This document shows, one piece after another, positions 8,187 through 36,779 of a stretch of 64,000 nucleotides of DNA. The notes beneath the pieces are model-generated. The model saw only the letters and a program-made list of their open reading frames with translations, was not told the origin of the DNA and ran no database searches. Positions within the stretch are counted from its first letter, which is position 1; the number at the start of each line of letters is the position of its first letter. The stretch comes from Escherichia coli (GTDB lineage Bacteria; Pseudomonadota; Gammaproteobacteria; Enterobacterales; Enterobacteriaceae): the NCBI RefSeq assembly GCF_024502345.1, contig NZ_JALDNN010000001.1, one strand, 5' to 3'. Made by a program: the position numbers and the translations under genes.

Positions 8187-8266
8187 TCTTCAATCCTGCC
8201 CCGTAATAAAAACACCTTCAGATATATATTATCTCCATGATATCAATCAGATACATGAGGATAAAT

Positions 8267-17030: not shown

Positions 17031-17076
17031 AGTTAACTCCGAAAAAATGCCGGGAGCTGTGTCCCGGCATAAAGAA

Positions 17077-19329: not shown

Positions 19330-20460
19330 CTACAGTTTCATGATCTTGTTCGCTATTTTTTCGAAGTAAACCTCATTCTTAAGAAGAGTGATATTGTTTG
19401 TTTGAACACCCAGACCACTGGAGGTTGACTGGAAGTTGAGTGAACCACTTATCACTGTGGACTTTCCTGATAAAAATGAAATCAACTCCTTGGAAGATGG
19501 TGCCCACTCAGGGTTTAAGAGTAATGCAATATAGATATATGTCTTACGAAGCAATTGTTCTATATCTTTTTTATGCCCTGTAGTGTTTTGCTTACCTTTA
19601 ATGCAAATAGATTTGATTATGAACTCATCAGGGCTGGTTAAAGGCGTTTTAAACTCACTCAGTGATCCATCGTTATGAATGACTTCATAAGGCAGCATAG
19701 ATAAAATGATCAATGCAATCATTTTAGGATGATAAAGGTAGTTATCACGAATGATTTTTCCTGCCTTCATTGTATTGAGCGTTGTTTGAATAAATACAAA
19801 AAGATATTCAGAGCAAAAGTAACAAAACACAAGCCAGGATAGGTCAATGGATGGAATGTTAATATCCTTAGGTAGTTTGTTTAGCCAGTATTCAGACTTC
19901 AAAAAGGTCCTGATTTCAACAGTATATTCATGCATTTTTGCGCTGAAATCAAGCATTGCTACTTGACCTGATTGTTCCGTAACTGTGTGGTCTATAAATG
20001 TTAGTGTATTGCACATTTTATCCAGCGTGTTTTGAAAACAAGAAAGGAGTTCGGCATTATTATTACCATTAACCGCAGATGAAAGTTCAGTTTTAATAAA
20101 TGCATCCAGTAGCATACAGATTTCTTTCGGAATGACATTTTTACGGGATTGCTGTGAATAGAAATGTACTGCCAGTAAATTAAAGGCAGTGCACTCCTTT
20201 TTTAACCATTGTTCGAGCACTGGGACGTGCTGAAAAAAATTGATATGCTTAGCAGTAGATGCTGATGGAGATAGTACATGAAGAATATCTACAGCAGGCT
20301 TCATTTGCAATATTTGATCGGATTCGGTAGTCGTCATTAGTTCCAGTAATTGCTGTTCAGAAAATAGTTTAGACAGGTGATCAATGTCTTTTTGGTATTG
20401 ATTAAGTTTTGTTAAATTCCCCGGTATACGGGTTACATTGTTTTTCATTTTCTCGAACAT
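19330..20460 (-). CDS. Hypothetical protein, AT-rich, no recognisable domain
   Basis: 376-aa ORF in a low-GC block; Lys/Asn/Ile-rich. Confidence 0.5.
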   Translation of the reverse strand: MFEKMKNNVTRIPGNLTKLNQYQKDIDHLSKLFSEQQLLELMTTTESDQILQMKPAVDILHVLSPSASTAKHINFFQHVPVLEQWLKKECTAFNLLAVHFYSQQSRKNVIPKEICMLLDAFIKTELSSAVNGNNNAELLSCFQNTLDKMCNTLTFIDHTVTEQSGQVAMLDFSAKMHEYTVEIRTFLKSEYWLNKLPKDINIPSIDLSWLVFCYFCSEYLFVFIQTTLNTMKAGKIIRDNYLYHPKMIALIILSMLPYEVIHNDGSLSEFKTPLTSPDEFIIKSICIKGKQNTTGHKKDIEQLLRKTYIYIALLLNPEWAPSSKELISFLSGKSTVISGSLNFQSTSSGLGVQTNNITLLKNEVYFEKIANKIMKL

Positions 20461-20966: not shown

Positions 20967-22202
20967 TTAAAAGGAAATAAATAATGCCTTCCGCCGATGA
21001 ATCAGTGTACTGATTTCTCGAAAATCAGCCTCAATACTACCAACATCACCAAAGACTTCACCACTAATCTCTCTTCGATTTTTCATGAAATTGGTGCTTA
21101 ATAAGCTTTCTTTTTTTAGTGTCACTAATTTTGGTTTTATATCGTTATAGAAATGCTTACGGCTTACCCTGATGCTATGAATCGAGTAGTAAACTGTTTT
21201 ATACATCAAAAATATAAGTAACTGGCCGAGAAGATATTCTTTTTCAATGTATTTATATTGAGAGGATTTTTCGCGTTTCGCCAGGTAGAAAACATGAGGT
21301 GCGATGATGGTGGGGATGAAATCCAGTGCTGGAGAGGTTTTGGTTTTTTCTGTTTCTCTTCCGGATTGAAGATGTTGAAGTACAGAGTATACAATGCTTA
21401 AAATTATGGCGTTACTTATATTATTAATTGCAGTTGGGTAAATATGCAGATTGCTTATCAATTCTGAAAGGCAAAGTAAAACACCAGTGATGTTGGGTTT
21501 TCTGCCGGAGATTGTGGTGCTGTTGAAAATGTGACGATTCTTACGACTTATATTGACAAGTTTATGAGTGCAGAACTCTATATGTTCGACGATTTTATCT
21601 TGACTATTTTTAATGTATTTTGAAATGTTAGTGATCCGGCCATTCAACGTTAGTTCATCAAGCAATATATCATTTTTAATATTGCGAATTTCATCGCAAT
21701 GTTCACATTGAGAAACTATCTCATGTAATACATAACTCGACGTATTGCGGGGTGACGCTGATATGTAATCTAAAATAGAAGGCTCGATTTTGATTTTTTG
21801 TTTGTATTTTTTAATGCACTGTTTGATTGTTTTTTGTAGAGTATTTGAGATGTGTTTTTTATATTCTTTTAGAAAATCTTGCTCTAAAAAGAGTGAGGAG
21901 AAGATCAACTGCTGGCGAGATAATTTAATCTCAGGCTTGATCAATTTAATCCGAAAAACTCTTCCCTCCAACTCATAGCTGAACATGGAAGATAAGTCAT
22001 AGTGGGGTGATAAATGTTCGAGTAACGACATTCGTGTATTCATTAGCCGCTTGAATTTATGGTCAGCATACATAAGTGTTTTTTTTATTTGCTCATCATA
22101 AAGTGGGCCGATAGCGCAGTTGGCAATACTCATTCTATCCGGAGACCTCCAGTCAGCAGGGGAATCACATTGACGGTCATCATTACTATCAAAGGGCATC
22201 AA
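20967..22202 (-). CDS. Hypothetical protein, AT-rich, no recognisable domain
   Basis: 411-aa ORF in a low-GC block; no Walker or nuclease motifs seen. Confidence 0.5.
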   Translation of the reverse strand: MMPFDSNDDRQCDSPADWRSPDRMSIANCAIGPLYDEQIKKTLMYADHKFKRLMNTRMSLLEHLSPHYDLSSMFSYELEGRVFRIKLIKPEIKLSRQQLIFSSLFLEQDFLKEYKKHISNTLQKTIKQCIKKYKQKIKIEPSILDYISASPRNTSSYVLHEIVSQCEHCDEIRNIKNDILLDELTLNGRITNISKYIKNSQDKIVEHIEFCTHKLVNISRKNRHIFNSTTISGRKPNITGVLLCLSELISNLHIYPTAINNISNAIILSIVYSVLQHLQSGRETEKTKTSPALDFIPTIIAPHVFYLAKREKSSQYKYIEKEYLLGQLLIFLMYKTVYYSIHSIRVSRKHFYNDIKPKLVTLKKESLLSTNFMKNRREISGEVFGDVGSIEADFREISTLIHRRKALFISF

Positions 22203-22505: not shown

Positions 22506-24029
22506 ATGAACGACAAAATCAGTCAGGACACGATCAACAAAGCCCTGTGGGCCGCGTGTGATACGTTCCGTGGCACCATCAGTGCTGATACCTATAAAGA
22601 CTTTATCCTTACCATGCTATTCCTTAAGTACATTTCGGATGTCTGGCAGGATCACTACGACGAATATAAAGTGCAATATGGTGATGAGCCGGAACTGATT
22701 GAAGCGATGATGGCGAACGAGCGCTTCGTGTTGCCGAAAAGCGCCAGTTTCTATGCGTTGTACGAGCGACGTCATGAGCCGGGCAACGGTGAGCGTATCG
22801 ATCAGGCGCTGCATGCGATTGAAGAAGCCAACGGCACCAAACTGAAAGATGCCGGGAAAAGTGTCTTCCAGGATATTTCGTTTAACACTGACCGTCTGGG
22901 CGAAGAAAAACAGAAGAACACCATCCTGCGTCAGTTGCTGGAAGACTTTGCCGGTGAAGATCTTAACCTGAAGCCAAGCCGTGTCGGTACGCTGGACGTT
23001 ATCGGTAATGCTTACGAATATCTGATCAAAAACTTTGCTGCCAGCGGTGGGCAGAAAGCCGGGGAATTCTATACCCCACCGGAAGTTTCGGATCTCATCG
23101 CTGAACTGCTTGATCCTCAACCCGGTGATACAATCTGCGACCCGGCCTGTGGTTCCGGTTCGTTGCTAATGAAGTGCGGGCGTAAAATTGTCTCAGGACA
23201 TGATAGCCGCAACTATGCGTTGTTCGGTCAGGAAGCGATTGGCTCCACGTGGTCGCTGGCGAAAATGAACATGTTCCTGCACGGCGAAGATAACCACAAA
23301 ATCGAGTGGGGCGATACCATTCGTAACCCGAAGTTGTTGGATAAAAACGGCGACCTGATGCTGTTTGATATCGTGACCGCAAACCCACCGTTCAGCCTGG
23401 ATAAGTGGGGCCATGACGAGGCCGAGAATGATAAGTTTGGGCGTTTCCGTCGCGGTGTACCGCCGAAGACTAAAGGGGATTACGCCTTTATCTCGCATAT
23501 GATCGAAACCCTGAAACCGGGAACGGGTCGTATGGGCGTAGTGGTGCCGCACGGTGTGCTGTTCCGTGGCTCCAGCGAAGGCAAAATTCGTCAGAAGCTG
23601 ATTGATGAAAACCTACTCGATGCGGTGATTGGCCTGCCTGAAAAACTGTTCTACGGTACGGGTATTCCTGCTGCAATTCTGATTTTTAAAAAGCAGAAAG
23701 TGGATGACAAGGTGCTGTTTATCGACGCCAGCCGTGAATTTAAGGCAGGTAAAAACCAGAACCAGCTCAGCGCAGAAAACATCGAGAAAATCGTCAAGAC
23801 CTACCGTGATGGCGATAGCGTCGAGAAATATGCCTACCTTGCCAGCCTGAAGGAGATTCAGGACAACGATTACAACCTCAATATTCCGCGCTATGTCGAT
23901 ACCTTTGAAGAAGAAGAAGATATCGATTTACTTGCCGTTCGTGCTGAGCGGGAGGAATTGAAAGCGGAACTGGCGAAATTGGAAACGCAGATGGCGGGTT
24001 ATCTGGAGGAGCTGGGTTATGGTGCCTAA
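22506..24029 (+). CDS. hsdM: Type I restriction-modification N6-adenine DNA methyltransferase subunit
   Basis: 507 aa; SAM-binding DPACGSGSLL and catalytic NPPF (VTANPPFSL). Confidence 0.9.
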   Translation: MNDKISQDTINKALWAACDTFRGTISADTYKDFILTMLFLKYISDVWQDHYDEYKVQYGDEPELIEAMMANERFVLPKSASFYALYERRHEPGNGERIDQALHAIEEANGTKLKDAGKSVFQDISFNTDRLGEEKQKNTILRQLLEDFAGEDLNLKPSRVGTLDVIGNAYEYLIKNFAASGGQKAGEFYTPPEVSDLIAELLDPQPGDTICDPACGSGSLLMKCGRKIVSGHDSRNYALFGQEAIGSTWSLAKMNMFLHGEDNHKIEWGDTIRNPKLLDKNGDLMLFDIVTANPPFSLDKWGHDEAENDKFGRFRRGVPPKTKGDYAFISHMIETLKPGTGRMGVVVPHGVLFRGSSEGKIRQKLIDENLLDAVIGLPEKLFYGTGIPAAILIFKKQKVDDKVLFIDASREFKAGKNQNQLSAENIEKIVKTYRDGDSVEKYAYLASLKEIQDNDYNLNIPRYVDTFEEEEDIDLLAVRAEREELKAELAKLETQMAGYLEELGYGA

Positions 24030-25266
24030 GGGGTGGAAACGAGTACCGATTAAGGATGTGTGCGAGTCTATAATCGATTGCGTAAATAAAACAGCTCCAG
24101 TTGTTGATTATGAAACTCCCTTTAAGATGATTCGTACCACGAATGTACGTAATGGAAGGGTTAATACTGAAGACGTCAGATATGTGACTGAAGACACTTA
24201 CCTGCAATGGGTTCGACGCGGAAAACCGCAAGTAGGTGATATCATCTTTACACGTGAAGCACCTGTAGGAGAAGCAGGTGTCCTGCAAGATGCTGAAGGT
24301 ATTTTCCTCGGGCAAAGAACGATGATGTATCGAGCTGATACCTGCCTTTCAGATAACTATTTCTTGTTCTACTCGTTATCAAGTCCCTTCTGCCAGAAAC
24401 AAATTGAAGATTTTAGCAATGGCGGTACTGTAGCTCATATGAGAGTTCCAGATTGCGGTGAGATATTGATCAATCTACCGCCTTTCCTCGAACAAAAGAA
24501 AATCGCCCAAATCCTGTCAACCTGGGATAAGGCGATTTCGGTGACGGAAAAGCTTCTCACCAACAGCCAGCAGCAGAAAAAAGCCCTGATGCAGCAATTG
24601 CTTACTGGGAAGAAACGCTTGCTGGATGAGAATGGGACAAGGTTTTCTGAAACTTGGAAATTATATGCCTTATCGAAATTATTTCAGAGAGTTACGACTA
24701 AAAACAATGGAAAAAGCAACAATGTTGTAACCATTTCTGGACAACATGGTTTGATTAAACAGGAAGACTTTTTCAAGAAAACAGTCGCATCAGATACCCT
24801 TGATGGTTATTTCTTATTAAAAAAAGGGCAGTTTGCTTACAATAAAAGTTACTCTAATGGTTATCCGATGGGTGCAATAAAAAGATTAAATCGATATCCA
24901 GAGGGAGTAGTAACAACTCTGTATATATGTTTTGAACTTACTACACCCAAAAAATCATGTGGTGACTATTGGGAGCATTATTTTGAGTCAGGGCTTTTGA
25001 ATAACAGTTTGTCTCAAATTGCTCATGAAGGTGGACGGGCTCATGGCTTGCTAAATGTAAAACCTTCGGACTTCTTTTCATTAAAAGTTGCGGTTCCTGG
25101 CTTTGAAGAGCAACAAAAAATCGCATTAGTTCTGTCCGCTGCCGACACCGAAATCTCCACACTGGAGAAAAAACTCGCCTGCCTGAAAGACGAGAAGAAA
25201 GCCTTGATGCAGCAACTGCTGACCGGGAAACGTCGGGTGAAAGTGGATGAGGCGGTTGCCGTATGA
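24019..25266 (+). CDS. hsdS: Type I restriction-modification specificity subunit
   Basis: 415 aa; two target-recognition halves each followed by the conserved repeat KKALMQQLLTGK(K/R)R; overlaps hsdM stop. Confidence 0.88.
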   Translation: MVPKGWKRVPIKDVCESIIDCVNKTAPVVDYETPFKMIRTTNVRNGRVNTEDVRYVTEDTYLQWVRRGKPQVGDIIFTREAPVGEAGVLQDAEGIFLGQRTMMYRADTCLSDNYFLFYSLSSPFCQKQIEDFSNGGTVAHMRVPDCGEILINLPPFLEQKKIAQILSTWDKAISVTEKLLTNSQQQKKALMQQLLTGKKRLLDENGTRFSETWKLYALSKLFQRVTTKNNGKSNNVVTISGQHGLIKQEDFFKKTVASDTLDGYFLLKKGQFAYNKSYSNGYPMGAIKRLNRYPEGVVTTLYICFELTTPKKSCGDYWEHYFESGLLNNSLSQIAHEGGRAHGLLNVKPSDFFSLKVAVPGFEEQQKIALVLSAADTEISTLEKKLACLKDEKKALMQQLLTGKRRVKVDEAVAV

Positions 25267-25946
25267 AACTGACGAAAAGCGGTCCACTGACTGACCGGGA
25301 AATCGACTGGCTGGAAGAAATATTAATGAAGTATGGAATGGATGATTCTGTACTCTGTTTCTCTGAGCTGGATGGATTGCTGACGGCGATTTTATCAGGT
25401 CCAAATATGGTTTCACCCAATATCTGGCTGAGTGCTATTTGGGGAGGAGGCGATTATCATCCGAAATGGTCATCTGAGAGAGAGATGGAGCGTTTTGTCA
25501 GTCTGTGTTTTCAGCATATGAACGATATCGCTGGTTGCCTTTATGACGCCCCTGAACTGTTTGAGCCGATTTTCAATGAGCGTGAGGTAAAGGGGGAAAA
25601 ATATACCATTGTGGAAGAGTGGTGTTTTGGTTATATGAAAGGAAAGTCACTGGATGACTGGTCTGGTCTTCCCGGTGAGTTACGGCCTTCTCTGGAAGTG
25701 ATCGCTCTTCATGGCGTGGAGAAGAATTTTCCTGTACTTGAGAAAATGACCGGAGAGCAGTTTGAGAAAAGTATTTCCCTTATTCAGCCTGCTGCACTGG
25801 CACTTTATCAGTACTGGTTGTCAGTGAGAATGTCAGAGGCATCATCCCGGCCTGTTCCAGTGAAGGGGGCAGAAAACATGCCCGGGCGAAATGACCCGTG
25901 TCCGTGTGGCAGCGGTAAAAAATTTAAGAAGTGCTGTCTGCATTGA
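25263..25946 (+). CDS. YecA-like (UPF0149) protein with C-terminal SEC-C metal-binding motif, embedded between hsdS and hsdR
   Basis: 227 aa; C-terminus [20 protein letters not shown]; alignable along its length with chromosomal YecA at 34841-35506. Confidence 0.75.
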   Translation: MKLTKSGPLTDREIDWLEEILMKYGMDDSVLCFSELDGLLTAILSGPNMVSPNIWLSAIWGGGDYHPKWSSEREMERFVSLCFQHMNDIAGCLYDAPELFEPIFNEREVKGEKYTIVEEWCFGYMKGKSLDDWSGLPGELRPSLEVIALHGVEKNFPVLEKMTGEQFEKSISLIQPAALALYQYWLSVRMSEASSRPVPVKGAENMPGRNDPCPCGSGKKFKKCCLH

Positions 25947-25995
25947 TGAATCTTCATGTGACCAGTAGCGAGTAGCGCCAGAAAGAAAAGGATTA

Positions 25996-28900
25996 ATGAT
26001 GAACCAGACGTACACGCCAAAATTCCAGGAAGAATACAGCGCCAAAATTCCGGCACTGACGTTACTGACCAGCCTCGGCTGGACGTTTTTATCTCCGAAA
26101 CAGATTATGGATTACCGGGGCTATAAACAGGATGAGGTGGTGCTGCGTCCGGTTCTGCGTGAAGAGCTGTCGAAGCGTTCCTTTATGGCGGGTGGCAAAA
26201 CCTGCCAGTTATCGGAAAAAGCACTGGATAACCTGATATCACAGGTCTGTTCTCCGGCGCTGAATGAAGGGCTGCTCAAAGCCAATGAACGGATGTATAA
26301 CCATCTGCTCTACGGTATCGCCGTCACGGAGTTTGTCGATGGCAAGAAGGTCAACCCCACCATTGCGCTGATCGACTGGGAACATCCGGAAAATAACCAG
26401 TTCCACTTTACTGAAGAATTTACGGTATTGCGGTCAGGTGGTGTTGAAACCCGGAGGCCAGATATTGTCTGCTTTGTTAATGGTATCCCGCTGGCTGTTA
26501 TTGAAGCGAAAAGCCCGGCTGGTCATGGCAAGAAAGGGCCAACCATTGACGAGGGGATATCCCAGAGTATCCGCAACCAGTTCAACGATGAAATCCCGCA
26601 GCTGTTTGTCTACAGCCAGTTATTACTTTCGATTAACGGTCATGACGGGCGCTACGGTACATGCCATACGCCAATGAAATTCTGGGCGGCATGGCGCGAA
26701 GAAGATATTACCGATGCGCAGATGTATGCTCTGCGCAACCATCCTTTATCGACTGAACAAATTCATGCGTTGTTTGATCATCGTCCATCAGCCGATCTCA
26801 ACTGGTACCAACAGTTAATCGCCGCCGGTGAACTGGCTGTCAGTGGACAGGACAAACTGCTCATCAGCCTGCTTTCGCCGGAACGTCTGCTGGAGATGAC
26901 CCGCTTCTTCACTCTGTTTGATAAAAAGACCGGGAAAATTGTCGCCCGCTATCAGCAGGTGTTCGGTATTAAAAGACTGCTGGAGCGCATCAGTACCCGC
27001 AGACCCGATGGGGGCAGGGAAGGTGGTGTTATCTGGCATACCACCGGCTCTGGCAAATCGTACACCATGGTGTTCCTCAGCAAGGCGCTGATTCTTCATG
27101 ACAGCCTGAAGCGGTGTCGTATCGTGGTGGTGACGGACCGTATCGATCTTGAAGAACAGCTCAGCAGTACCTTTGCATCCGGCGGCGAGTTGGCCGGGAA
27201 AAAAGACAAAGCCAATGCAATGGCGACATCCGGGCAGATGCTGGCGAAACAGATTGGCTCCGGTAAAGAACGCATCATTTTCACCCTAATCCAGAAATTT
27301 AATTCAGCGACAAAACTTCCTGAATGCGTCAATACCAGCCCCGATATCATCGTTCTGGTTGATGAAGGACACCGTAGCCAGGGTGGTGAGAACCATGTGC
27401 GAATGAAACTGGCACTGCCGAACGCCGCCTTTGTGGCATTTACTGGTACGCCATTGCTAAAAGAAGATAAGACCACCAATAAATTCGGACCGATTGTCCA
27501 CGCTTATACCATGCAGCGAGCGGTAGAAGATAAAGCCGTTACACCTTTGCTGTATGAAGAACGTATTCCCGACCTTGAGGTTAACGATCGGGCAATAGAT
27601 GCCTGGTTTGATCGTATTACCGATGGGTTAAGCGAAGCGCAAAAAGCCGACCTGAAGCGTAAATATGCCCGTAAAGGTGAGGTTTATAGTGCAGATGATC
27701 GCATCCGTCTGATCGCACTCGATATCGCCACGCACTTCTCGAAGAATATTGATGAGGGACTGAAAGGCCAGCTTGCCTGCGACAGCAAGATTTCCGCCAT
27801 CAAATATAAAAAGTATCTTGATGAAGCCGGGTTGTTTGAGTCAGCTGTAGTTATCAGCCCGCCGGATACCCGGGAAGGGAATACCGAAGTGGATGAAAGC
27901 AAACTGCCGGAAGTGACGAAATGGTGGAAGGATAATGTCGGCACGCAGGATGAGTCTGTGTATACCCGTAATGTCATCAGTCGTTTCGATACCGATGAGA
28001 AGCTCAAATTGCTGATAGTCGTTGATAAACTGCTCACCGGGTTTGATGAGCCGAAGAATACCGTGCTGTATATCGACAAGCCGCTTAAGTCCCACAACCT
28101 TATCCAGGCGATTGCGCGGGTGAACCGACTGCATCCACTAAAAAAGTTCGGTCTGCTGATTGATTATCGCGGTATTCTGGCTGAGCTGGACACGACTATC
28201 GGCAAATATCAGGACCTCGCCTCCCGAACTCAGGGCGGATACGATATCAAAGATATTGACGGGCTGTACAGCGCCATGAGCTCTGAATACAAGCGCCTGC
28301 CGCATCTGTATAACCAGCTGTGGGCCATATTTGCCGGTGTTAAAAACAAAAATGATACTGAGCAGTTACGTGCGGTACTGGTGCCTAAAATGGAAGAACG
28401 TGACGGAGAGATGGTCGATATCCATCAGAAAACCCGTGATGATTTCTTCGAGGCGTTAACGGCCTTTGCCGGATGCCTGAAAGTGGCACTGCAGTCCGCT
28501 ACCTTCTTCACCGACAAGAGCTTTACGGAACAAGACCGAAATCTCTATAAAGAAACCGTAAAACAGATGTCCAGCCTGCGCCAGTGGGCGATGCAGGTAA
28601 GTGGAGAGCAGGTCAATTATGACGACTACGCTGAGCAGGTGAAAAAACTGCTGGATAAGCATGTCACCGGCGTTGAAGTTCGTGAACCGGATGGCGTGTA
28701 TGAAGTCGGTAAAATGGGCAAGAGCGAAAAGCCCGAAGAGTGGGACAACAATAAAACCCGCAATGAAACCGACATCATTAAAACCCGTGTGACAAAGATG
28801 ATTGAGCAGGAATTGCGTGATGACCCGTATGCTCAGGAGGCATTTTCAAAACTCCTGCGTATGGCTATCGAAGAGGCTGAAAAACTGTTTGACCATCCGC

Positions 28901-29283
28901 TGAAACAGTACCTTTTGTTCCGTGAATTTGAAGAACAGGTTGAAGCCCGTAAGCTCAGCGATATCCCGGATGCACTGGCGGTAAACAAGCATGCTCAGGC
29001 GTATTACGGTGTATTTAAAAAAGAGCTACCTGAGGTTTTTGCGGTAAACGACGTTCAGGTGCAGGATAAGTGGACGAAGCTGGCTTTTGAAGTGGACAAC
29101 ATTATCGTCAAAGCGGTGGCAGAAAACTCCCTGAACCCCCAGGACATTGAGAAAGTCGTTAAGACAAGTCTGCTACCACTGCTGTTTACGGCCTGCCGGG
29201 AAATTGGTGCCGGAATGAATCAGGTTAACCGTATTGTTGAAACCATCATCCAGATACTGCGCGTTGGTTTGATGAAATCATGA
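25996..29283 (+). CDS. hsdR: Type I restriction enzyme R subunit (nuclease/helicase)
   Basis: 1095 aa; helicase motif I TTGSGKS, motif II DEGHRSQ, N-terminal nuclease region. Confidence 0.9.
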   Translation: MMNQTYTPKFQEEYSAKIPALTLLTSLGWTFLSPKQIMDYRGYKQDEVVLRPVLREELSKRSFMAGGKTCQLSEKALDNLISQVCSPALNEGLLKANERMYNHLLYGIAVTEFVDGKKVNPTIALIDWEHPENNQFHFTEEFTVLRSGGVETRRPDIVCFVNGIPLAVIEAKSPAGHGKKGPTIDEGISQSIRNQFNDEIPQLFVYSQLLLSINGHDGRYGTCHTPMKFWAAWREEDITDAQMYALRNHPLSTEQIHALFDHRPSADLNWYQQLIAAGELAVSGQDKLLISLLSPERLLEMTRFFTLFDKKTGKIVARYQQVFGIKRLLERISTRRPDGGREGGVIWHTTGSGKSYTMVFLSKALILHDSLKRCRIVVVTDRIDLEEQLSSTFASGGELAGKKDKANAMATSGQMLAKQIGSGKERIIFTLIQKFNSATKLPECVNTSPDIIVLVDEGHRSQGGENHVRMKLALPNAAFVAFTGTPLLKEDKTTNKFGPIVHAYTMQRAVEDKAVTPLLYEERIPDLEVNDRAIDAWFDRITDGLSEAQKADLKRKYARKGEVYSADDRIRLIALDIATHFSKNIDEGLKGQLACDSKISAIKYKKYLDEAGLFESAVVISPPDTREGNTEVDESKLPEVTKWWKDNVGTQDESVYTRNVISRFDTDEKLKLLIVVDKLLTGFDEPKNTVLYIDKPLKSHNLIQAIARVNRLHPLKKFGLLIDYRGILAELDTTIGKYQDLASRTQGGYDIKDIDGLYSAMSSEYKRLPHLYNQLWAIFAGVKNKNDTEQLRAVLVPKMEERDGEMVDIHQKTRDDFFEALTAFAGCLKVALQSATFFTDKSFTEQDRNLYKETVKQMSSLRQWAMQVSGEQVNYDDYAEQVKKLLDKHVTGVEVREPDGVYEVGKMGKSEKPEEWDNNKTRNETDIIKTRVTKMIEQELRDDPYAQEAFSKLLRMAIEEAEKLFDHPLKQYLLFREFEEQVEARKLSDIPDALAVNKHAQAYYGVFKKELPEVFAVNDVQVQDKWTKLAFEVDNIIVKAVAENSLNPQDIEKVVKTSLLPLLFTACREIGAGMNQVNRIVETIIQILRVGLMKS

Positions 29284-30035
29284 GTGAAAAAGAATCGCCA
29301 TCAATGAAAGCGTTACGCATTGTCTATGGTGATGAGGTCATCGTCGTACAGTGTGTTCCGCGTCAGGTCGTAAAGGGCAGGGTGCTCATTAAGGTTTATC
29401 CGGACTGCCGGGTTGTGGCCTCTGTACCGCCTGAAACACCGGAGCACGAGGTATTGTCTGCGCTGAAAAAACGTGGGCGCTGGATATACCAGCAACTGCG
29501 TGATTTCAGGGAGCAACAGATACACATTGTTCCGCGTCAGTATGTCAGCGGAGAAAGCCATTATTATCTCGGTAAGCAATATCAGTTGAAAGTGACAGAA
29601 GACGCTACTGTGCCGCAACGAGTGAAAATGTTGCGTGGACGTCTGGAAGTGACTGTCAGACACAAATCGGCAGAAAAGATTAAAGCCTTGCTGGCTGAAT
29701 GGTATCGGGAACGTGCCAGAGATGTTTTTCAGCGCAGGCTTGATTTACTGATTCCGCAGACCCTTTGGGTCAGTGAGCGTCCTCCGATACGTCTGCGGGC
29801 GATGCAAACGCAATGGGGCAACTGTTCAGCAAAAGGCTGTCTGACCCTGAATCCATGGCTGGTTAAGGCATCTTCAGAATGTATCGATTATGTTTTGCTA
29901 CATGAGTTATGCCATGTGGCTGAGCACAACCACAGCGAGGAGTTTTACCGTCTGATGGGACAGGTTATGCCGGGCTGGGAAAAGGTTAAGAAGCGACTGG
30001 ATGGTATGGCTGGGATGTTGTTGGCAGATATGTAA
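29280..30035 (+). CDS. DUF45/YgjP-like predicted zinc metallohydrolase (M48/WLM-like)
   Basis: 251 aa; HELCHVAEHNHSEEF metal-binding signature; start overlaps hsdR stop. Confidence 0.7.
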   Translation: MSEKESPSMKALRIVYGDEVIVVQCVPRQVVKGRVLIKVYPDCRVVASVPPETPEHEVLSALKKRGRWIYQQLRDFREQQIHIVPRQYVSGESHYYLGKQYQLKVTEDATVPQRVKMLRGRLEVTVRHKSAEKIKALLAEWYRERARDVFQRRLDLLIPQTLWVSERPPIRLRAMQTQWGNCSAKGCLTLNPWLVKASSECIDYVLLHELCHVAEHNHSEEFYRLMGQVMPGWEKVKKRLDGMAGMLLADM

Positions 30036-30093
30036 CTTATCAATATGAGTTCTTAAGAGTTTGGTCAGTCTCGTTAATGCAGGGAGTATAATA

Positions 30094-31932
30094 ATGAGTA
30101 AGTTAGATAATAAAATTGAAGCACGCCATCGTAATTTGTTTGATGTTCTAAATGCGCAAAAATATACCGTTGATTACTTTCAGCGCGAGTATAGCTGGGG
30201 TGAGAAACATATTGAAGAGTTGGTTACAGACTTAACATCTGCGTTTCTCAATGAATACACAGTCGGTGATTCTCGGGAGCAGGGTGAAAACTACAATAAT
30301 TATTACTTAGGACCATTTGTTGTGAGTAGTAAAGATGGAAAGCGGAGTATTATTGATGGTCAGCAACGACTGACTTCATTAACTTTATTTCTAATTTACC
30401 TCCATAATCTTCAGAAAGAACTTAAATATGAAGAGAAAATAGAATCAATGATTTTCTCCGAGCTACGTGGCAGCAAATCATTCAATATAGTAGTTGAAGA
30501 CAGAATTCCTTGCATGGAAGCATTGTTTAATTTTGGTAGCTATAGTTTAGTTGATGGGGATGATGAGTCAACCCATAACATGGTGGAGAGATATCAGAAT
30601 ATCACAGATGCTTTTCCTGATGAGTTAAAAGGTCAGGCTTTTCCTTTTTTTATCGACTGGCTTAAGTATAACGTTATTATGGTTGAGATAGTCGCCTATT
30701 CAGATGAAAACGCATATACCATCTTTGAGACTATGAATGACCGAGGATTGAATCTTACTCCGTCCGAAATGCTTAAAGGTTTTTTACTTTCACGTTTTCA
30801 TCAGGGAGATAAACGCCAAAAGGCAAATGAACTCTGGAAAAAAGCGATGATGGATTTAAAAAGCTATGACAAAGATGAAGACCAACGTTTTTTCCAGTCA
30901 TGGTTGCGTGCTCAATATGCTGATACAATACGCCCGGGTAAAGCTGGTTCAAAAAATGAAGACTTTGAAAAAATAGGTACGCGTTTTCATAGCTGGGTTA
31001 GAGATAATCTTCAGGCGGTGGGATTGGACCCAGATAATGGTGAGACATTCGAACGATTTATACAAAAAAACTTTTTGTTTTATTTGAATGCCTATACACA
31101 AATACTGAATGCTGAGAGAGTATTAACGCACCAACTGGAATATGTATTTTATATCCACCATTGGGGTATTGCACCTACTTTAAGTTTTCCTTTGATGTTG
31201 GCTCCATTAAATGTAGGTGACAGTCCTGAGGCTGTGATAGCCAAAATAAACCTAGTGGCTCGCTATATTGAAACGTTTGTTGTTCGTCGTTCTGTTAATT
31301 TCCGAAAATTCTCTGCCAGTTCTATTCGTTACACAATGTACAGTCTTGTTAAAGAGATTCGTGGTAAAAGTTTTGAAGAATTAAAAGATTTATTATCTAA
31401 GAAGTTATCCGAAATGCCAGATACTTTTGCAGGAATGGAAGAGTTTCGTCTCCATGGTCAAAACTATCGTTTTGTGAAGTTTTTGCTTTCTCGTATAACT
31501 GCGTGGGTTGAGCAACAAGCCGGAATGAGTACAACCTTCATTACATATTATCAGCCAGAACACGGTAAGCCATTTGAAGTCGAGCATATTTGGGCCGATA
31601 AATATGAACGTTACTCTGATGAGTTTGAACAAGAGCACGAATTTAACAATTACAGAAATCGCTTAGGTGATTTGGTTTTATTACCTAGAGGCTCAAACCA
31701 GTCATATGGTGATTTGTGTTACGATCAAAAGCAACCTCATTACATCAAAGAGAATCTCCTGGCTAAATCGTTATGCCCATTGGCATATATGAATAACCCT
31801 AATTTCAATCAGTTGAGAAATGTATTCGGATTGCCTTTCAAACCACATGATTCATTTAAAAAACAAGATGTCGATGAACGACAGTCTTTGTATAAAATAA
31901 TTTGTGAGAATATTTGGGGCCATAATTTATAG
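30094..31932 (+). CDS. DUF262 + DUF1524 protein (GmrSD-family-like, predicted type IV restriction endonuclease)
   Basis: N-terminal IIDGQQRLTSL (DUF262 DGQQR motif), C-terminal FEVEHIWA His-Me finger-like (DUF1524); RBS ggag before ATG 30094. Confidence 0.7.
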   Translation: MSKLDNKIEARHRNLFDVLNAQKYTVDYFQREYSWGEKHIEELVTDLTSAFLNEYTVGDSREQGENYNNYYLGPFVVSSKDGKRSIIDGQQRLTSLTLFLIYLHNLQKELKYEEKIESMIFSELRGSKSFNIVVEDRIPCMEALFNFGSYSLVDGDDESTHNMVERYQNITDAFPDELKGQAFPFFIDWLKYNVIMVEIVAYSDENAYTIFETMNDRGLNLTPSEMLKGFLLSRFHQGDKRQKANELWKKAMMDLKSYDKDEDQRFFQSWLRAQYADTIRPGKAGSKNEDFEKIGTRFHSWVRDNLQAVGLDPDNGETFERFIQKNFLFYLNAYTQILNAERVLTHQLEYVFYIHHWGIAPTLSFPLMLAPLNVGDSPEAVIAKINLVARYIETFVVRRSVNFRKFSASSIRYTMYSLVKEIRGKSFEELKDLLSKKLSEMPDTFAGMEEFRLHGQNYRFVKFLLSRITAWVEQQAGMSTTFITYYQPEHGKPFEVEHIWADKYERYSDEFEQEHEFNNYRNRLGDLVLLPRGSNQSYGDLCYDQKQPHYIKENLLAKSLCPLAYMNNPNFNQLRNVFGLPFKPHDSFKKQDVDERQSLYKIICENIWGHNL

Positions 31933-31990
31933 CAAAGTTGGGGTGTTAATTAATGTGTAATGGCATCATGATTTTTAAAAGGAGGTTGAA

Positions 31991-33118
31991 TTGCGTTCTG
32001 AAACGTTTTTTGTCAAATTTATTGAACAACTGAAAGGTATTTCGGTTGAGGATGATGTTGAATTCAATTTTTTTGAATTGGGTGGTTCCGGATATCTCGA
32101 AAATCCAACTACGGATTTGATGGCTTTGTTTATGGGAGCCCAGAAAATGGTGCCGCCATGGTTGCTCAAAGCATTGCTATGTTGCCTAGATGATTCCCTC
32201 GATGTTGATGAAATTGATTTCACTTCTCTGGAGCTAATGAGAGAGGCCCGAACAGAAGATGGGAAATATATTGATATTCTTATCAGACATGATGAATTCA
32301 TTATAGGTATTGAGCATAAAGTTCTGGCTGATACATATAATCCTTTTCCCAGCTATGTAAGTCTCATTGATAGTTACGGCGGCAACAATCAAAAACTATT
32401 TCGCTGTATATTAAAGCCTGACGGTAACAGCGCTAAAGGCGTAGACGGTTGGCAACTGATCAATTATTCACTGCTGCTGGAAACCGCCATTCGACGTCTG
32501 GGGTTAGAGATGATGAATCAAGAGTTCAGCAAGTGGACTTTTTTTTATCAGGAGTTTTTAAGTCATCTTAAAAAATTGAGTGAGGTTAGTATGGATAAGG
32601 TATCTGATAAAAATGTGGAGTTTGTCACTGAAAATTTCACAGCTTTGATAAAATCGGTTCAATTGCTGGAAATGTACCAAAATGCTATCACCGAGGAAGC
32701 TAAATCGGTTGTCTCAGAGGTATTGCCTGATATTCATATTGCAACAGGTATTAATAACTGGAAGGGTTACTATAAAGCAATTCATCTGATGCCGGGATGC
32801 TGGGGGCAAGGTAAAACAGGAATTACGTTAGTTTATCGCCCTTCAGAGGATGGTCGAGATGAAGCTGAGTTCTATGTATATGGATGGATACATTCAGATG
32901 ATTACCCTGAAGTTAATGCACTAAAAGAAGAAATAAGAGTTGCTTTAAGTGCTGGAGATTTCATTCCAACAGCTAGCCCTGAGGACTATGAAGTATCAAT
33001 TACTGGGAAGGGGAAAGTGCTTGAACTGAGTTTTTGGGGGAATACGAGAAGCAAAAAAGATGCACTGGTTCTTCTTAAGGATATGACTAAGTGGATGGAC
33101 TCAAAAATAAGAACATAA
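31991..33118 (+). CDS. Hypothetical protein with candidate PD-(D/E)xK nuclease motif; TTG start uncertain
   Basis: 375 aa; DILIRHDEFIIGIEHK fits D...ExK; RBS aaaggagg upstream. Confidence 0.4.
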   Translation: MRSETFFVKFIEQLKGISVEDDVEFNFFELGGSGYLENPTTDLMALFMGAQKMVPPWLLKALLCCLDDSLDVDEIDFTSLELMREARTEDGKYIDILIRHDEFIIGIEHKVLADTYNPFPSYVSLIDSYGGNNQKLFRCILKPDGNSAKGVDGWQLINYSLLLETAIRRLGLEMMNQEFSKWTFFYQEFLSHLKKLSEVSMDKVSDKNVEFVTENFTALIKSVQLLEMYQNAITEEAKSVVSEVLPDIHIATGINNWKGYYKAIHLMPGCWGQGKTGITLVYRPSEDGRDEAEFYVYGWIHSDDYPEVNALKEEIRVALSAGDFIPTASPEDYEVSITGKGKVLELSFWGNTRSKKDALVLLKDMTKWMDSKIRT

Positions 33119-33222
33119 AGTAATATGACTGAGTGATGACGATCTTTTTTAAATTGTGGATTATTAGGCTGGTAATTGAAGCGCCGAATAGACAGATATT
33201 AGAATAAAAGGAGAATATTCAA

Positions 33223-34404
33223 ATGATTTATCAGTGTGATACTTGCAGTAGAACGACTTTTGAGGTTAATTGTCCCTGGTGTAGTGGAGTTTCGCCTGTA
33301 AAAACGTCTGCATGGGGTTCAGCATCATCGACCTCACAAGCAATAGATATACAACGTATGACACCATTGAATCCATCGTTTTATCCAGAGTTTCAGTATC
33401 GTTCAAAGGGTGTTCTAAAAGATCTATTTGGGAAAAAGAAAGAGCAAACTCAGCTTAATCAATTGCTTGAAAATGTTCTCGAAAAATACTCCAGTTTAAA
33501 AGATCCATATTTTACTAACTTCATTTACACTTCCAGATTCTCACATAATAATAAATCGGAAGCAGATTACTCAACAGATAATGGTACATACTCCGAATTA
33601 CAACTTTTCCGTGAGGTGTTGGTCAGAAAAGGGTTCAATGAGCTTGAAGAGTTACCTGAGCTATTAGATAAATTACTCCTTACCACGTCATTTAACGCTC
33701 TTTATTATGGTTTCGCTAAGGAAGTTAAACGGCATATTAAATCTACACTTACTGAATCCTTGAAGTCATGGATTGAGGAAGCGGGTACCACTTTTAGGGC
33801 AGATCTTTCATTGTTTCTATTCTATATATGGAGCAATAAAATAGAGTTCTCATCAGTAGAGTTCAATGAAAAAGCGGAGGCTACGCCTGGTGTTCCTTTA
33901 GTTTCATTTGATGAAGTTAAAAAATACTTAGCTGTGTGCGAACATATTTATTTTGATATTCTGGTTGATAGATTAGCTACACGGCTCGAACATTTTAACC
34001 CTAACAAATTCGTCACCATGTATTTAGTTGATGCAATGGACGGTTTCCAGTTTGAAGATTTCCTTGTGGAAGTATTCCAGACTATGGGCTATGACGTCAA
34101 AGAAACCAAGAGAACGCAAGATCAGGGGGCAGATCTCTTCGTCACTCGATTTGGTAAGGATATGGTTATTCAGGCGAAAAATTATTCTGGTTCTGTAGGT
34201 AACTCGGCGGTGCAGCAGGTGATCTCTGCTAAAACATTCTATGGTTGTGATGAGGCGATGGTTGTGACTAATTCCTACTTCACTCGCTCTGCGAAAGAGT
34301 TAGCTGAATCAGCCTTGGTACGTCTGATCGACAGGGATGAACTGCAAAAGTATCTGGATGATTACAATCAGAAGATAATTGAAGATTTCCAGTCAAACTC
34401 GTAA
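33223..34404 (+). CDS. Protein with N-terminal zinc ribbon and C-terminal Mrr-type restriction endonuclease catalytic domain
   Basis: 393 aa; CDTCS...CPWCS; C-terminal FEDFLVEVFQTMGY...GADLFV...IQAKNY...VQQVISA matches the Mrr_cat pattern. Confidence 0.6.
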   Translation: MIYQCDTCSRTTFEVNCPWCSGVSPVKTSAWGSASSTSQAIDIQRMTPLNPSFYPEFQYRSKGVLKDLFGKKKEQTQLNQLLENVLEKYSSLKDPYFTNFIYTSRFSHNNKSEADYSTDNGTYSELQLFREVLVRKGFNELEELPELLDKLLLTTSFNALYYGFAKEVKRHIKSTLTESLKSWIEEAGTTFRADLSLFLFYIWSNKIEFSSVEFNEKAEATPGVPLVSFDEVKKYLAVCEHIYFDILVDRLATRLEHFNPNKFVTMYLVDAMDGFQFEDFLVEVFQTMGYDVKETKRTQDQGADLFVTRFGKDMVIQAKNYSGSVGNSAVQQVISAKTFYGCDEAMVVTNSYFTRSAKELAESALVRLIDRDELQKYLDDYNQKIIEDFQSNS

Positions 34405-34589
34405 CTTTGCAGTCATATAGATATAGCAAAGGACAGGTAGGCCTCCGTGAGAGGGGGACTTACCTGTGCAGATTCTGTGCTCAAAGTTATCCAAGTCTAT
34501 CTATTTACTGCCAATTACAGTAAAATGAGTAAACAATTACAGCAAAGTTTCGCAATGCACTGCTATGTAACTCATTGATCCTGCGTAGA

Positions 34590-34719
34590 ATTTAAAATCC
34601 CTCGGCGTTCGCGCTGTGCGGGTTCAAGTCCCGCTCCGGGTACCATGGGAAAGATAAGAATAAAATCAAAGCAATAAGCAGTGTCGTGAAACCACCTTCG
34701 GGTGGTTTTTTTGTGCCTG
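34590..34719 (+). repeat. attR: displaced 3' half of tRNA-Leu plus terminator (direct repeat of 7149-7276)
   Basis: Contains tRNA 3' 56 nt ending CCA at 34645, with no 5' half upstream; terminator hairpin at 34691-34712. Confidence 0.85.
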
Positions 34720-34840
34720 CAACTTGTCGTTACACCCTCCTTAATTTTTAATCACCGGCAAAGCCACTCAAAAAGTATCTCTGATACGGACCGGCATGTA
34801 AGATAGGTGCTGGCGAGTTGAGATCCACAAGGAAAAACGT

Positions 34841-35506
34841 ATGAAAACGGGACCGTTAAACGAAAGTGAGTTGGAATGGCTGGACGATATTCTGACCAAA
34901 TACAACACTGACCACGCCATCCTTGATGTGGCGGAGCTGGACGGTTTATTGACGGCGGTGTTGAGTTCTCCGCAAGAGATTGAACCGGAACAGTGGCTGG
35001 TTGCCGTGTGGGGTGGGGCTGACTATGTGCCGCGCTGGGCGTCAGAGAAAGAGATGACGCGCTTTATGAACCTGGCTTTTCAACATATGGCCGATACCGC
35101 AGAGCGTCTGAACGAATTCCCGGAGCAGTTTGAGCCGTTATTCGGCTTGCGAGAAGTTGATGGCAGCGAGCTGACGATTGTTGAGGAGTGGTGCTTTGGC
35201 TATATGCGGGGCGTGGCACTTTCTGACTGGTCAACATTGCCCGATTCGTTAAAACCAGCGCTGGAGGCGATTGCGCTGCACGGTACTGAGGAAAACTTCG
35301 AGCGGGTAGAAAAGATGTCGCCAGAAGCGTTTGAAGAGAGCGTAGATGCCATTCGACTGGCGGCGCTTGATCTACATGCGTACTGGATGGCGCATCCGCA
35401 GGAAAAAGCTGTTCAGCAACCGATCAAAGCAGAAGAGAAACCGGGGCGTAACGATCCTTGCCCGTGCGGTAGTGGTAAGAAATTTAAGCAGTGCTGCCTG
35501 CATTAA
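34841..35506 (+). CDS. yecA: UPF0149 family SEC-C motif protein YecA
   Basis: 221 aa; C-terminal [20 protein letters not shown]; conserved position next to leuZ/tyrP. Confidence 0.88.
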
Positions 35507-35567: not shown

Positions 35568-36779
35568 TCACCCCACTTCTGGTAACAACCCTGCCGCAAT
35601 CAAAAATTGCACGCCAATCACAGCAATACCACAGAGAAACACCACCACCAGCGCCGGACGACCACCTTTGACCCGGTAACCCGCCTGAGGATTGTGCTTT
35701 CTGCTTTGCCAGGTCAACAGCGAAGGGATAATCAATGCCAGTACCGCCAGCGCCACACCGGCGTAACCCAGCGCCATCACAAATCCTCGTGGATAAAACA
35801 GTGCAAACGCCAACGGCGGCAGAAAGGTAATTGCACCAGTTTGCAACCGTCCACCAACGGTATTTGAACGCTGAAATAAATCAGCCAGATAATCAAATAA
35901 GCCTAACGCAACGCCGAGAAATGACGTGGCGAGGGCTAAATCAGCAAATAAATGCACTGCCAGCTCAACATGCGGAGAGGCCACCATTTCGCGTAACGCC
36001 TGTAACAGCCCGTTTAATCCAGCATGATTAGCCAGCAATCCCATAAAGGTTGTTGAATCAATGCTGCCAAGCGTTGCCACCTGCCAGAAAATATATGCCA
36101 CCAGGGGGATCGCACTACCGGTTATAAACACCCAGCGTAGCTTACGAACGTTGCCATCCATATAGCTGACAATACTCGGCACGCTACCGTGAAAACCAAA
36201 TGAGGTAAAAATCACCGGGATTGCTGACAGAGCCAGCCCCTGTTGCAACGGCAGGGTTAAAAGATTCACTTTGTGAATATGCGGTAGCAGCAATACCAGC
36301 ATCACCACCAGAAAAATAATTTTGGCGCTGAACAGAAAACGGTTAAATAAATCGACCAGCGATGTTCCAACACAAACCACGCCACCGGCAACAAAAGTGA
36401 ACAACAGCACGCCAGCGGTTGCCGACATTGAAATACCTGTCCAGTCGCTGATGCTGGAGGCCAACAATTCACCGGCACCGCTGATGTATGCCGCAGTCAG
36501 AGCATACATTAAGAACATCATACTGAAGCCCGTCAGCCACTGACCGTAGCGTCCCAGATAGCGTTTTGCCAGCGTGCCAAGACCGGTATCTGCCGGAACA
36601 TGCTGGTACACCTCCAGCAGTAATAGCGCCGTGTAGCACATCAACGCCCAAAGCCCAATCAACAAGATTAACGTGACGCTAAAACCAACACCTGCCGCAG
36701 CCAGCGGCATTGCCAGCATGCCTGCGCCAATTGTGGTTCCCGCCACGATAAAAACACTTCCCAGAGTTCTGTTTTTCAC
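35568..36779 (-). CDS. tyrP: Tyrosine-specific transport protein
   Basis: 403-aa multi-pass membrane protein of the HAAAP aromatic amino acid permease family; synteny. Confidence 0.88.

Follow-up and report, generated by a model that had tools for sequence, protein, structure and literature searches.

The window analyzed here, a 64,000-nt stretch of an Escherichia coli contig (NZ_JALDNN010000001.1, assembly GCF_024502345.1), contains a 27 kb island (7205-34722) that lies between two direct repeats, 131 nt long and matching the 3' half of tRNA-Leu, and is flanked by E. coli chromosome, with uvrC-pgsA-tRNA Gly/Cys/Leu on one side and yecA-tyrP-yecH-ftnA on the other. It is a pipolin that has leuZ (tRNA-Leu) as its integration site. 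Two genes of the YecA family were found in the window, and their arrangement agrees with what the first-pass annotation had described: the element inserted beside the host yecA; one copy lies in the element's type I restriction-modification (R-M) operon; and the other is chromosomal, immediately outside the right att. The first copy is between hsdS and hsdR, and the second has its first base 118 nt past the right repeat. The features of the locus are:

7118-7204, + strand: tRNA-Leu(UAA) (leuZ), the integration target
7149-7279, + strand: left att direct repeat, comprising the 3' half of tRNA-Leu and the terminator
8237-9484, + strand: tyrosine recombinase beside attL (site-specific integrase)
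14430-17093, - strand: piPolB, primer-independent family-B DNA polymerase and pipolin hallmark (by homolog annotation and motifs)
18056-19186, - strand: second tyrosine recombinase/integrase
22506-24029, + strand: hsdM, type I R-M methylase subunit (N6_Mtase/HsdM_N)
24019-25266, + strand: hsdS, specificity subunit (Methylase_S), whose conserved 3' end runs into the start of the yecA-like gene
25263-25946, + strand: R-M-linked YecA paralog, 227 aa, with a UPF0149 domain and a SecA-type metal-binding tail (PADLOC PDC-S12)
25996-29283, + strand: hsdR, restriction/translocase subunit, 1095 aa (HSDR_N/SWI2_SNF2/T1R_D3)
29280-30035, + strand: YgjP-like / M48 metallopeptidase, overlapping the hsdR stop
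30061-31932, + strand: GmrSD-family (DUF262/DUF1524) type IV restriction-like protein (PADLOC HEC-06-like)
31991-33118, + strand: PD-(D/E)XK_4 nuclease family protein (PADLOC PDC-S26)
33223-34404, + strand: Mrr-type restriction endonuclease domain protein
34590-34722, + strand: right att direct repeat, sharing 95% identity with its left counterpart; end of the island, 118 nt before yecA
34841-35506, + strand: chromosomal yecA, 221 aa, the syntenic ortholog, with convergent tyrP next
35568-36779, - strand: tyrP, chromosomal neighbor of yecA

The piPolB open reading frame has 99% identity to a protein whose annotation is DNA-directed DNA polymerase, and it shows the motifs FDTE, NSLYGK and TTDG. 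This 887-aa polymerase and four other island ORFs had no match in Pfam, NCBIfam, PADLOC or PDB sequence searches, and the identity of the polymerase rests on the annotation of a homolog. The pipolin core (integrases, DUF2787 and a WYL-type HTH regulator, the WYL protein by annotation) is annotated in a 99.9%-identical E. coli locus (L001). The site itself is in keeping with previous work, which placed E. coli pipolins at the tRNA-Leu between pgsA and yecA and listed Type 1 RM and PDC-S12 among their frequent cargo (PMC11551731); all seven of the E. coli chromosomal loci that we sampled sit at the leuZ/yecA site.

HsdM, HsdS and HsdR carry their diagnostic Pfam domains in one operon, as expected of a type I R-M system. 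With type IC as the one named family among the references compared, HsdR matched chains of EcoR124I only, and distantly (E 3e-33 over ~220 residues). The start of the yecA-like gene overlaps the hsdS stop as ATGA, and this overlap is kept in 9/9 loci, including one with a different R-M family in Morganella. The gene order is hsdM-hsdS-yecA-like-[optional inserted gene]-hsdR-ygjP; wherever the operon is intact in the clade, the yecA-like gene lies between hsdS and hsdR.

Two YecA-family proteins in one window

The two proteins had been noted as paralogs that can be aligned end to end, C-terminal motif included, yet have clearly diverged. Pairwise comparison, the check proposed at the time, bears this out at both levels: BLASTP aligned the element copy with chromosomal YecA over their full length at 57% identity (127/223) with 74% positives (E 2e-99), the C-terminal motif [15 protein letters not shown](K/Q)CCLH being common to them, and nucleotide identity is 59.6%. 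Third-position identity is 38.5% and NG86 dS is undefined, meaning that synonymous sites are saturated, and no nucleotide similarity between the two copies was found beyond the ORF. They also differ in GC3 (46% for the element copy versus 59% for chromosomal yecA). When synteny was taken as the test of orthology, the chromosomal copy lies in the expected (pgsA-tRNA-Leu-)yecA-tyrP order; the element copy, between hsdS and hsdR, does not.

Domain searches assign both proteins to the same family over their whole length. UPF0149 (PF03695; cut-off 25) scores 105.4 bits at 25263-25943 and 126.7 bits at 34841-35503, and SEC-C (PF02810) is above its curated cut-off in both copies, with 40.6 bits given for the metal-binding tail. 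On the full-length YecA equivalog model NF007704 (NCBIfam; cut-off 149), the element copy reaches 356.7 bits and the chromosomal one 437.9 bits. Across 86 sequences, C213, C215, S217, C224 and C225 are invariant, corresponding to the metal ligands and a conserved Ser; the element copy retains all family-invariant residues and a complete SecA-type metal-binding tail, with PDB matches of its motif to the MBD chains of SecA and YchJ. An AF2 model of this protein has a pLDDT of 94, and a fold search with it matched only the UPF0149 structures 4GYT and 1IZM, at ~14-17% sequence identity. Neither Pfam (UPF0149 and SEC-C only) nor the fold search (no enzyme-like match) revealed an effector or enzymatic domain.

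The element copy also matches the PADLOC PDC-S12 HMM over residues 5-227 (E 3.9e-99, 328.9 bits). Because the housekeeping chromosomal YecA scores higher on this model (E 1.2e-110, 366.6 bits), the match says nothing about a function in defence. Hundreds of genomes carry the gene under the annotation YecA family protein; it is also listed in PADLOC and has been described as pipolin cargo.

Distribution and divergence of the R-M-linked clade

We identified the R-M-linked yecA-like gene in 419 of 5,426 E. coli genomes and on ~350 plasmids, mostly of Klebsiella, with further clade members in Citrobacter, Buttiauxella, Franconibacter, Morganella and Providencia; the hosts seen are Enterobacterales only. 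Its carriers are pipolins, other islands and conjugative plasmids across the order, and the same operon is found at unrelated sites. In species-representative genomes, each of the 8 clade members follows hsdM-hsdS, and all matches of 59% identity or less in Enterobacteriaceae are the syntenic yecA-tyrP copy. The association with R-M is not complete in either direction. About 24% of the E. coli operons of the same hsdR family (552 versus 419 genomes) have no yecA-like gene, locus L010 being an example, and intact solo copies occur in Providencia, beside a decayed hsdS, and at locus L014, which has no working R-M partner and occupies the same hotspot in another lineage. The L014 protein (P0017), which is basal in the clade, 74% identical and placed outside an R-M setting, was considered as a representative of the donor lineage and rejected, since the true chromosomal yecA ortholog lies 1.9 kb downstream on the same contig and P0017 is in the variable segment of the hotspot. 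Separately, a distant relative was seen directly behind a Tn3-family transposase on Xanthomonas and Pseudomonas plasmids.

Identity within the R-M clade is 74-100%, versus at most 60% to chromosomal YecA; every chromosomal YecA sampled lies at about the same distance from the element copy (54-60% aa identity). All trees were built by neighbor joining, from a sample that covers some of the Enterobacterales families; the first was distorted by chimeric sequences and was rebuilt without them. All bootstrap replicates (100%) recover the R-M-linked clade as monophyletic, and only 0-9% place it as sister to Escherichia/Salmonella yecA. In 85-95% of replicates it falls with the chromosomal YecA of Enterobacterales, apart from that of other Gammaproteobacteria; within that group, the chromosomal clade excludes it in 54-69% of replicates and contains it in 28-36%. 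In the phylogeny that had been suggested as a way to tell a host-derived copy from a separate mobile clade, the element copy is in a separate mobile clade whose nearest relatives are the chromosomal YecA proteins of Enterobacterales. We infer that the split from the enterobacterial chromosomal lineage dates to about the time when the order radiated into families. The divergence shows no rate burst, since the two clades are equally distant from outgroups (42.8% versus 43.2%). The R-M-linked gene is under purifying selection, with a dN/dS of 0.05-0.17 that is 2-4x that of hsdM/hsdR; its dS tracks that of hsdM and not that of hsdR, and its alleles are mosaic.

Three metagenome contigs, from ERZ8156899, ERZ27318547 and ERZ28616372, appeared to carry reciprocal hybrids between a Citrobacter chromosomal yecA and the element copy, two with the form upstream-chrN::elC-hsdR (L008 and L009) and one with hsdS-elN::chrC-tyrP (L013). 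Taken at face value, these would mean that the two copies recombine actively and that the element copy serves as a homology anchor for R-M cassette swaps at the yecA locus, which we judge very unlikely. In each hybrid the breakpoint coincides with the longest exact k-mer that the two parents have in common (24 nt, or 21-23 nt). The usual minimum k for such metagenome assemblers is 21, and the junction k-mers are at or just above it. The hybrid contigs are also short singletons, one at 2.2x coverage, and neither junction type occurs in any of 5,426 complete E. coli genomes; the E. coli copies share no more than 12-14 identical bases. For these reasons the hybrids (P0005, P0018 and P0019) were rejected as recombinants and are most likely assembly chimeras. 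A chromosomal-type patch in ETEC1718, hinted at by a long megablast piece, was likewise dismissed because windowed identity shows none, and no such patch was found in R-M-linked alleles of complete genomes.

Origin of the adjoining copies

The first-pass annotation had left two explanations for the adjacency, coincidence or capture of host flanking DNA by imprecise excision followed by divergence. Coincidence holds in the sense that the pipolin att site adjoins yecA: with the target leuZ naturally neighboring yecA in Enterobacteriaceae and the attachment site directly upstream of it, any pipolin cargo ends up near yecA. Capture of the host flank finds no support for this element and site, as the gene lies ~9 kb inside the island, is coupled to hsdS, belongs to a separate clade, and has saturated synonymous sites and no flank similarity. 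We consider it probable that the two genes are ancient paralogs brought together by the geography of a mobile element and not by capture here; this, with the more tentative holdase role proposed below, is the best explanation overall.

A recent event, in which imprecise excision left the island with a copy of the E. coli yecA next to it and this copy went on to diverge fast inside the element, would account for two related genes in the same orientation 9 kb apart, next to an att site that adjoins yecA, and the family relationship is real. However, we regard it as most improbable: besides the internal position, the fusion to hsdS, the saturation and the lack of flank similarity, there is no acceleration relative to outgroups, at most 9% of bootstrap replicates place the R-M clade beside Escherichia/Salmonella, and the same clade and gene order recur in other genera, on plasmids and at other sites. 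Another reading moves the event back in time, to an early enterobacterial leuZ element that took yecA by imprecise excision, the gene being later fused into an R-M module, so that the present adjacency echoes the origin. The bootstrap grouping with Enterobacterales chromosomal YecA, the restriction of the clade to Enterobacterales hosts, the widespread occurrence of leuZ-yecA adjacency and partial-tRNA att scars in Enterobacteriaceae, and the solo element-type copy in the same hotspot of another lineage all agree with it. Nevertheless, such an ancient capture seems to us quite unlikely, given that no sequence trace of a captured flank survives and that the yecA-like gene is never at the edge of an element. 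Moreover, yecA loci of Erwiniaceae have no tRNA-Leu, pgsA or tyrP within 6 kb, which means that the adjacency may postdate the split; pipolins have been argued to be late arrivals in Enterobacterales (PMC11551731); and the donor could be any enterobacterial chromosome or plasmid, by other routes. We take the origin question as settled to the extent that there was no local capture and that the R-M-linked gene is a deeply diverged paralog with a mobility of its own and with translational coupling to hsdS. The value of the arrangement as a discovery is small, as it is common and already catalogued.

Possible function and comparison with known systems

E. coli YecA (AscA), the chromosomal paralog, has been described in a preprint as a holdase that binds ribosomes and SecB (bioRxiv 10.1101/2020.07.21.215244). 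With the invariant residues and the metal-binding tail retained, the R-M-linked YecA probably keeps this biochemistry, as a non-enzymatic holdase docking on ribosomes and SecB through its tail. Because its gene is translationally coupled to hsdS, we propose that it would act on R-M subunits as they are made, and it may modulate how, or at what time, restriction-competent complexes assemble after the module has entered a new cell. A ribosome- and SecB-docking holdase serving the restriction module is possible, and we advance it with low confidence. If this is correct, type I restriction enzymes would have an accessory of the chaperone type, which no R-M system has had among its components so far and through which one could study how mobile R-M systems become established in a new host without killing it. 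We found nothing relevant in the literature on YecA together with type I restriction.

Both the R-M operons that lack the gene and the solo copies that lack a working R-M partner speak in favor of an autonomous module and against a subunit on which the R-M system depends. They are consistent with the YecA-like protein being a stand-alone anti-phage or anti-plasmid module nested in the R-M operon, like PrrC or TgvAB, as are the match to the candidate model PDC-S12, the elevated dN/dS relative to hsdM/hsdR and the mosaic alleles. YgfB, another UPF0149 protein, binds an antiterminator of phage type (PMC9998450). Such a module might, for example, trap nascent phage proteins at the ribosome, by analogy with the blocking of AlpA by YgfB. 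We think autonomous defence somewhat unlikely, however: the protein has no effector or enzymatic domain and its fold matches only UPF0149 proteins, housekeeping YecA outscores it on the PDC-S12 model, all 145 PDCs are untested candidates (bioRxiv 10.1101/2024.01.29.577857), and the conserved coupling to hsdS suggests co-function. The holdase reading can also be drawn more broadly, with the whole R-M-linked clade, which is coupled to hsdS/hsdR in Enterobacterales and has the distant relative behind the Tn3-family transposase, as an element-borne ribosome-docking holdase that would be a true accessory of large DNA enzymes and no bystander, timing their activity after transfer, and that perhaps arose by an ancient leuZ-flank capture; in this full form it is unlikely.

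The element copy can be compared with several known systems. PDCs were defined by 'guilt by embedding' in BREX, DISARM or type I R-M (Payne et al., bioRxiv 10.1101/2024.01.29.577857), and the element copy is likewise embedded in a type I R-M operon and matches the PDC-S12 model end to end. TgvAB and BrxU-type GmrSD, modification-dependent nucleases with shown anti-phage activity, are likewise encoded by additional genes within type I R-M or BREX (PMC11411939), a further instance of nesting in such a cluster on a genomic island. GmrSD-family genes follow the R-M operon in our window as well. Unlike TgvAB and BrxU-type GmrSD, the YecA-like protein is not a nuclease. PrrC of the EcoprrI type Ic R-M system is similarly a single extra gene between hsdS and hsdR. 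PrrC carries an ATPase and an anticodon nuclease effector, a guard feature that is absent from the YecA-like protein with its UPF0149 and SEC-C domains only. PrrC is regarded as the archetype of type I-embedded genes (bioRxiv 10.1101/2024.01.29.577857). YgfB of Pseudomonas aeruginosa shares the UPF0149 helical fold (1IZM-type) and works through protein binding alone, by which it blocks the antiterminator AlpA (PMC9998450), an example of what the domain is capable of, but it is chromosomal and without the SEC-C tail that the element copy has. The closest likeness is to E. coli YecA (AscA) itself, with the same full-length two-domain architecture at 57% identity and with the invariant residues and metal ligands retained; the element copy differs in belonging to a separate, horizontally transferred clade that sits behind hsdS and not between leuZ and tyrP.

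Two YecA paralogs flanking a pipolin attachment site

The window contains two full-length genes of the YecA family:

25263-25946, + strand, yecA-like (island copy), 227 aa
34841-35506, + strand, chromosomal yecA, 221 aa

The first-pass annotation described these as diverged paralogs that can be aligned throughout, C-terminal tail included, and this description is accurate: from end to end, the proteins show 57% identity and 74% positives (E 2e-99), with 59.6% nucleotide identity, and they have the SecA-type tail [15 protein letters not shown](K/Q)CCLH in common. Each scores above the thresholds of Pfam UPF0149 and SEC-C and of the NCBIfam YecA equivalog. PDC-S12, a PADLOC phage defence candidate model, matches the island protein with E 3.9e-99, and chromosomal YecA is a better match still. 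The PADLOC ‘E2’ and ‘E1-E2’ models gave weak matches in both SEC-C tails; SecA-type metal-binding tails thus recur in other defence-associated proteins.

The 27-kb island sits between tRNA-Leu(UAA) (leuZ) and yecA, with E. coli chromosome on its left (uvrC-pgsA-tRNA Gly/Cys/Leu) and right (yecA-tyrP-yecH-ftnA), and its edges are ∼131-nt direct repeats, 95% identical. It is a pipolin (a piPolB-encoding integrative element), a type of element that in E. coli inserts at the tRNA-Leu flanked by pgsA and yecA (PMC11551731). Two tyrosine recombinases are present, together with an 887-aa ORF that contains the PolB-type motifs FDTE, NSLYGK and TTDG and shares 99% identity with an annotated DNA-directed DNA polymerase, and DUF2787 and HTH-regulator genes that are annotated in a 99.9%-identical genome. 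The cargo runs hsdM-hsdS-yecA-like-hsdR-ygjP, followed by GmrSD, PD-(D/E)XK and Mrr-type genes; Type 1 RM and PDC-S12 are among the frequent, exchangeable defence cargo of pipolins (PMC11551731). As previously noted, one paralog lies within the R-M operon of the element and the other just outside attR; the latter starts 118 nt past the right repeat.

Repeats and conserved ORFs of the island
7149-7279, left direct repeat, tRNA-Leu 3′ half and terminator
34590-34722, right direct repeat, copy of the left repeat
17077-17715, − strand, ORF conserved across the E. coli pipolin loci compared
19330-20460, − strand, ORF conserved across the same loci
20967-22202, − strand, ORF conserved across the same loci

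The three ORFs had zero matches in Pfam and PADLOC, and also in NCBIfam for those that were run against it. The last three cargo genes (30061-34404; GmrSD/HEC-06-like, PDDEXK_4/PDC-S26 and Mrr-type) have a GC content of 37-39%, much below the 42-50% of the R-M operon, which suggests a separately acquired module; this block varies between otherwise similar islands.

Among 5,426 complete E. coli genomes, 419 have the yecA-like gene and 552 its hsdR family. All seven E. coli chromosomal loci that we opened are pipolins or remnants at the leuZ-yecA site, and Citrobacter amalonaticus (locus L054) has the same layout. That the element inserted beside the host yecA while carrying its own diverged copy is borne out. 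The adjacency is nothing special: it follows from the attachment site and is found wherever a leuZ-specific element carries this cargo. The earlier suggestion of coincidence holds in the sense that such an element brings any of its cargo close to yecA.

Origin of the island copy

The first-pass annotation also proposed that host flanking DNA had been captured by imprecise excision and had then diverged. For this element, the proposal is not supported, and the evidence argues against derivation from the neighbouring yecA. Identity at third codon positions is 38.5%, NG86 dS is saturated and thus undefined, and no similarity between the two copies was found outside the ORF; GC3 is 46% in the island copy versus 59% in chromosomal yecA. 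Database matches fall into a tight group at 74-100% identity and every chromosomal Enterobacterales YecA at 54-60%, with all Enterobacteriaceae matches at or below 59% being the syntenic yecA-tyrP gene. In bootstrapped neighbour-joining trees, built after removing three chimeric sequences, the R-M-linked group was monophyletic in 100% of replicates and sister to Escherichia/Salmonella yecA in only 0-9%. It fell outside the chromosomal clade in 54-69% and nested somewhere within it in 28-36%. A separate mobile clade is therefore upheld, but not one unrelated to enterobacterial YecA, with which it grouped against other gammaproteobacterial YecA in 85-95% of replicates. Given that these chromosomal proteins are the closest relatives of the clade, it may descend from a yecA captured long ago from an enterobacterial genome, perhaps at a leuZ flank, although nothing specific supports this. 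The two groups lie equally far from the outgroups (42.8% versus 43.2%), so a recent capture followed by faster evolution is not indicated.

Genomic context also divides the two groups cleanly. In species-representative genomes, all eight members of the clade (Franconibacter, a Klebsiella michiganensis plasmid, Intestinirhabdus, Enterobacter, two Buttiauxella, Morganella and Citrobacter freundii) lie directly behind hsdM-hsdS, and at unrelated sites the same operon is found with members at 75-79% identity. Copies of at least 80% identity adjoin hsdS on about 350 plasmids, most of them from Klebsiella and most conjugative. Branching within the clade disregards taxonomy, as expected for horizontal transfer. 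In Morganella morganii (L023 3289-6684), a yecA-like gene of 77% identity follows hsdS, and the HsdM is only 42% identical, indicating another type I family and an association that extends beyond a single R-M lineage.

Among metagenome proteins, three (P0005, P0018 and P0019) are hybrids that join Citrobacter chromosomal yecA with the element copy, and both reciprocal types occur. The hybrid genes lie on metagenome contigs:

L008 164-838
L009 340-1014
L013 355-1029

We set these aside as probable assembly chimeras rather than inter-paralog recombinants because their junctions fall on the longest exact k-mers shared by the parents (24 nt and 21-23 nt), each contig is a short singleton, and no such junctions occur in complete E. 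coli genomes. Real Citrobacter recombinants are the less likely alternative.

Distant members of the family also occur on 113 Xanthomonas and 24 Pseudomonas plasmids. Gene context was read in two, a Pseudomonas and a Xanthomonas plasmid, where the array is resolvase/RHH-PIN toxin-antitoxin/TnpA/YecA, a second, independent mobile-element recruitment of the family:

L098 4974-5687, distant YecA-family gene (25-29% identity), directly 3′ of a Tn3-family transposase
L099 5001-5699, the same arrangement and identity range

Operon structure and separability

The hsdS stop overlaps the yecA-like start as ATGA in all nine loci examined, while the 3′ side shows three different junction types. Many operons have a 594-620-aa protein between yecA-like and hsdR (L012 12786-14648 and L007 3801-5585, 90% identical to each other; also L017-L022), which has a weak cold-shock domain at its N-terminus and a C-terminal tail rich in Cys; with zero PADLOC matches, it is an uncatalogued embedded gene. 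Across operons, dS of yecA-like tracks hsdM and not hsdR/ygjP, which suggests that a recombination breakpoint lies 3′ of yecA-like, and its alleles are mosaics of one another. Purifying selection acts on the gene, with looser constraint than on hsdM/hsdR (dN/dS 0.05-0.17 versus 0.02-0.07).

Since yecA-like is missing from about 24% of the E. coli operons with this hsdR family and intact solo copies exist, the gene is separable from R-M. One solo copy, next to a degraded hsdS, is found in Providencia, and another in an enterobacterium related to ‘Citrobacter sp. JGM124’, 1.9 kb upstream of the host's own yecA (L014 4090-4629); the JGM124 chromosomal ortholog (L097 8290-8868, 192 aa) is without the SEC-C tail.

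L010 7924-12471, E. coli JX21CE35, same pipolin-type island and R-M operon, hsdS followed directly by hsdR
L014 1527-2210, solo element-type yecA at the same hotspot

JX21CE35 also differs in the 3′ end of hsdS and in the leader of hsdR; the absence is therefore no simple deletion.

Possible role in the restriction operon

Both the yecA-like gene and its position within R-M operons have been catalogued before. The predicted structure of island YecA is confident (pLDDT 94, pTM 0.85) and resembles only the two solved UPF0149 proteins, 4GYT and 1IZM, with no resemblance to an enzyme fold in the fold search. None of the family-invariant residues or metal ligands has been lost, nor has the conserved serine, and fixed differences between the R-M-linked and chromosomal clades number only six positions. 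E. coli YecA (AscA) is reported to bind SecB and the ribosome through its metal-binding domain (MBD), to bind clients promiscuously and to have holdase activity (preprint, bioRxiv 10.1101/2020.07.21.215244); the MBD binds iron. YgfB, another UPF0149 family member, acts by sequestering the antiterminator AlpA (PMC9998450). We therefore infer that island YecA is a non-enzymatic, chaperone-like binder that may dock on the ribosome and SecB. As the gene is coupled to hsdS, we tentatively propose that the protein would help to assemble the restriction complex or to set its timing. An autonomous anti-phage protein, as implied by the PDC label (all 145 PDCs being candidates; bioRxiv 10.1101/2024.01.29.577857), is a slightly less likely alternative.
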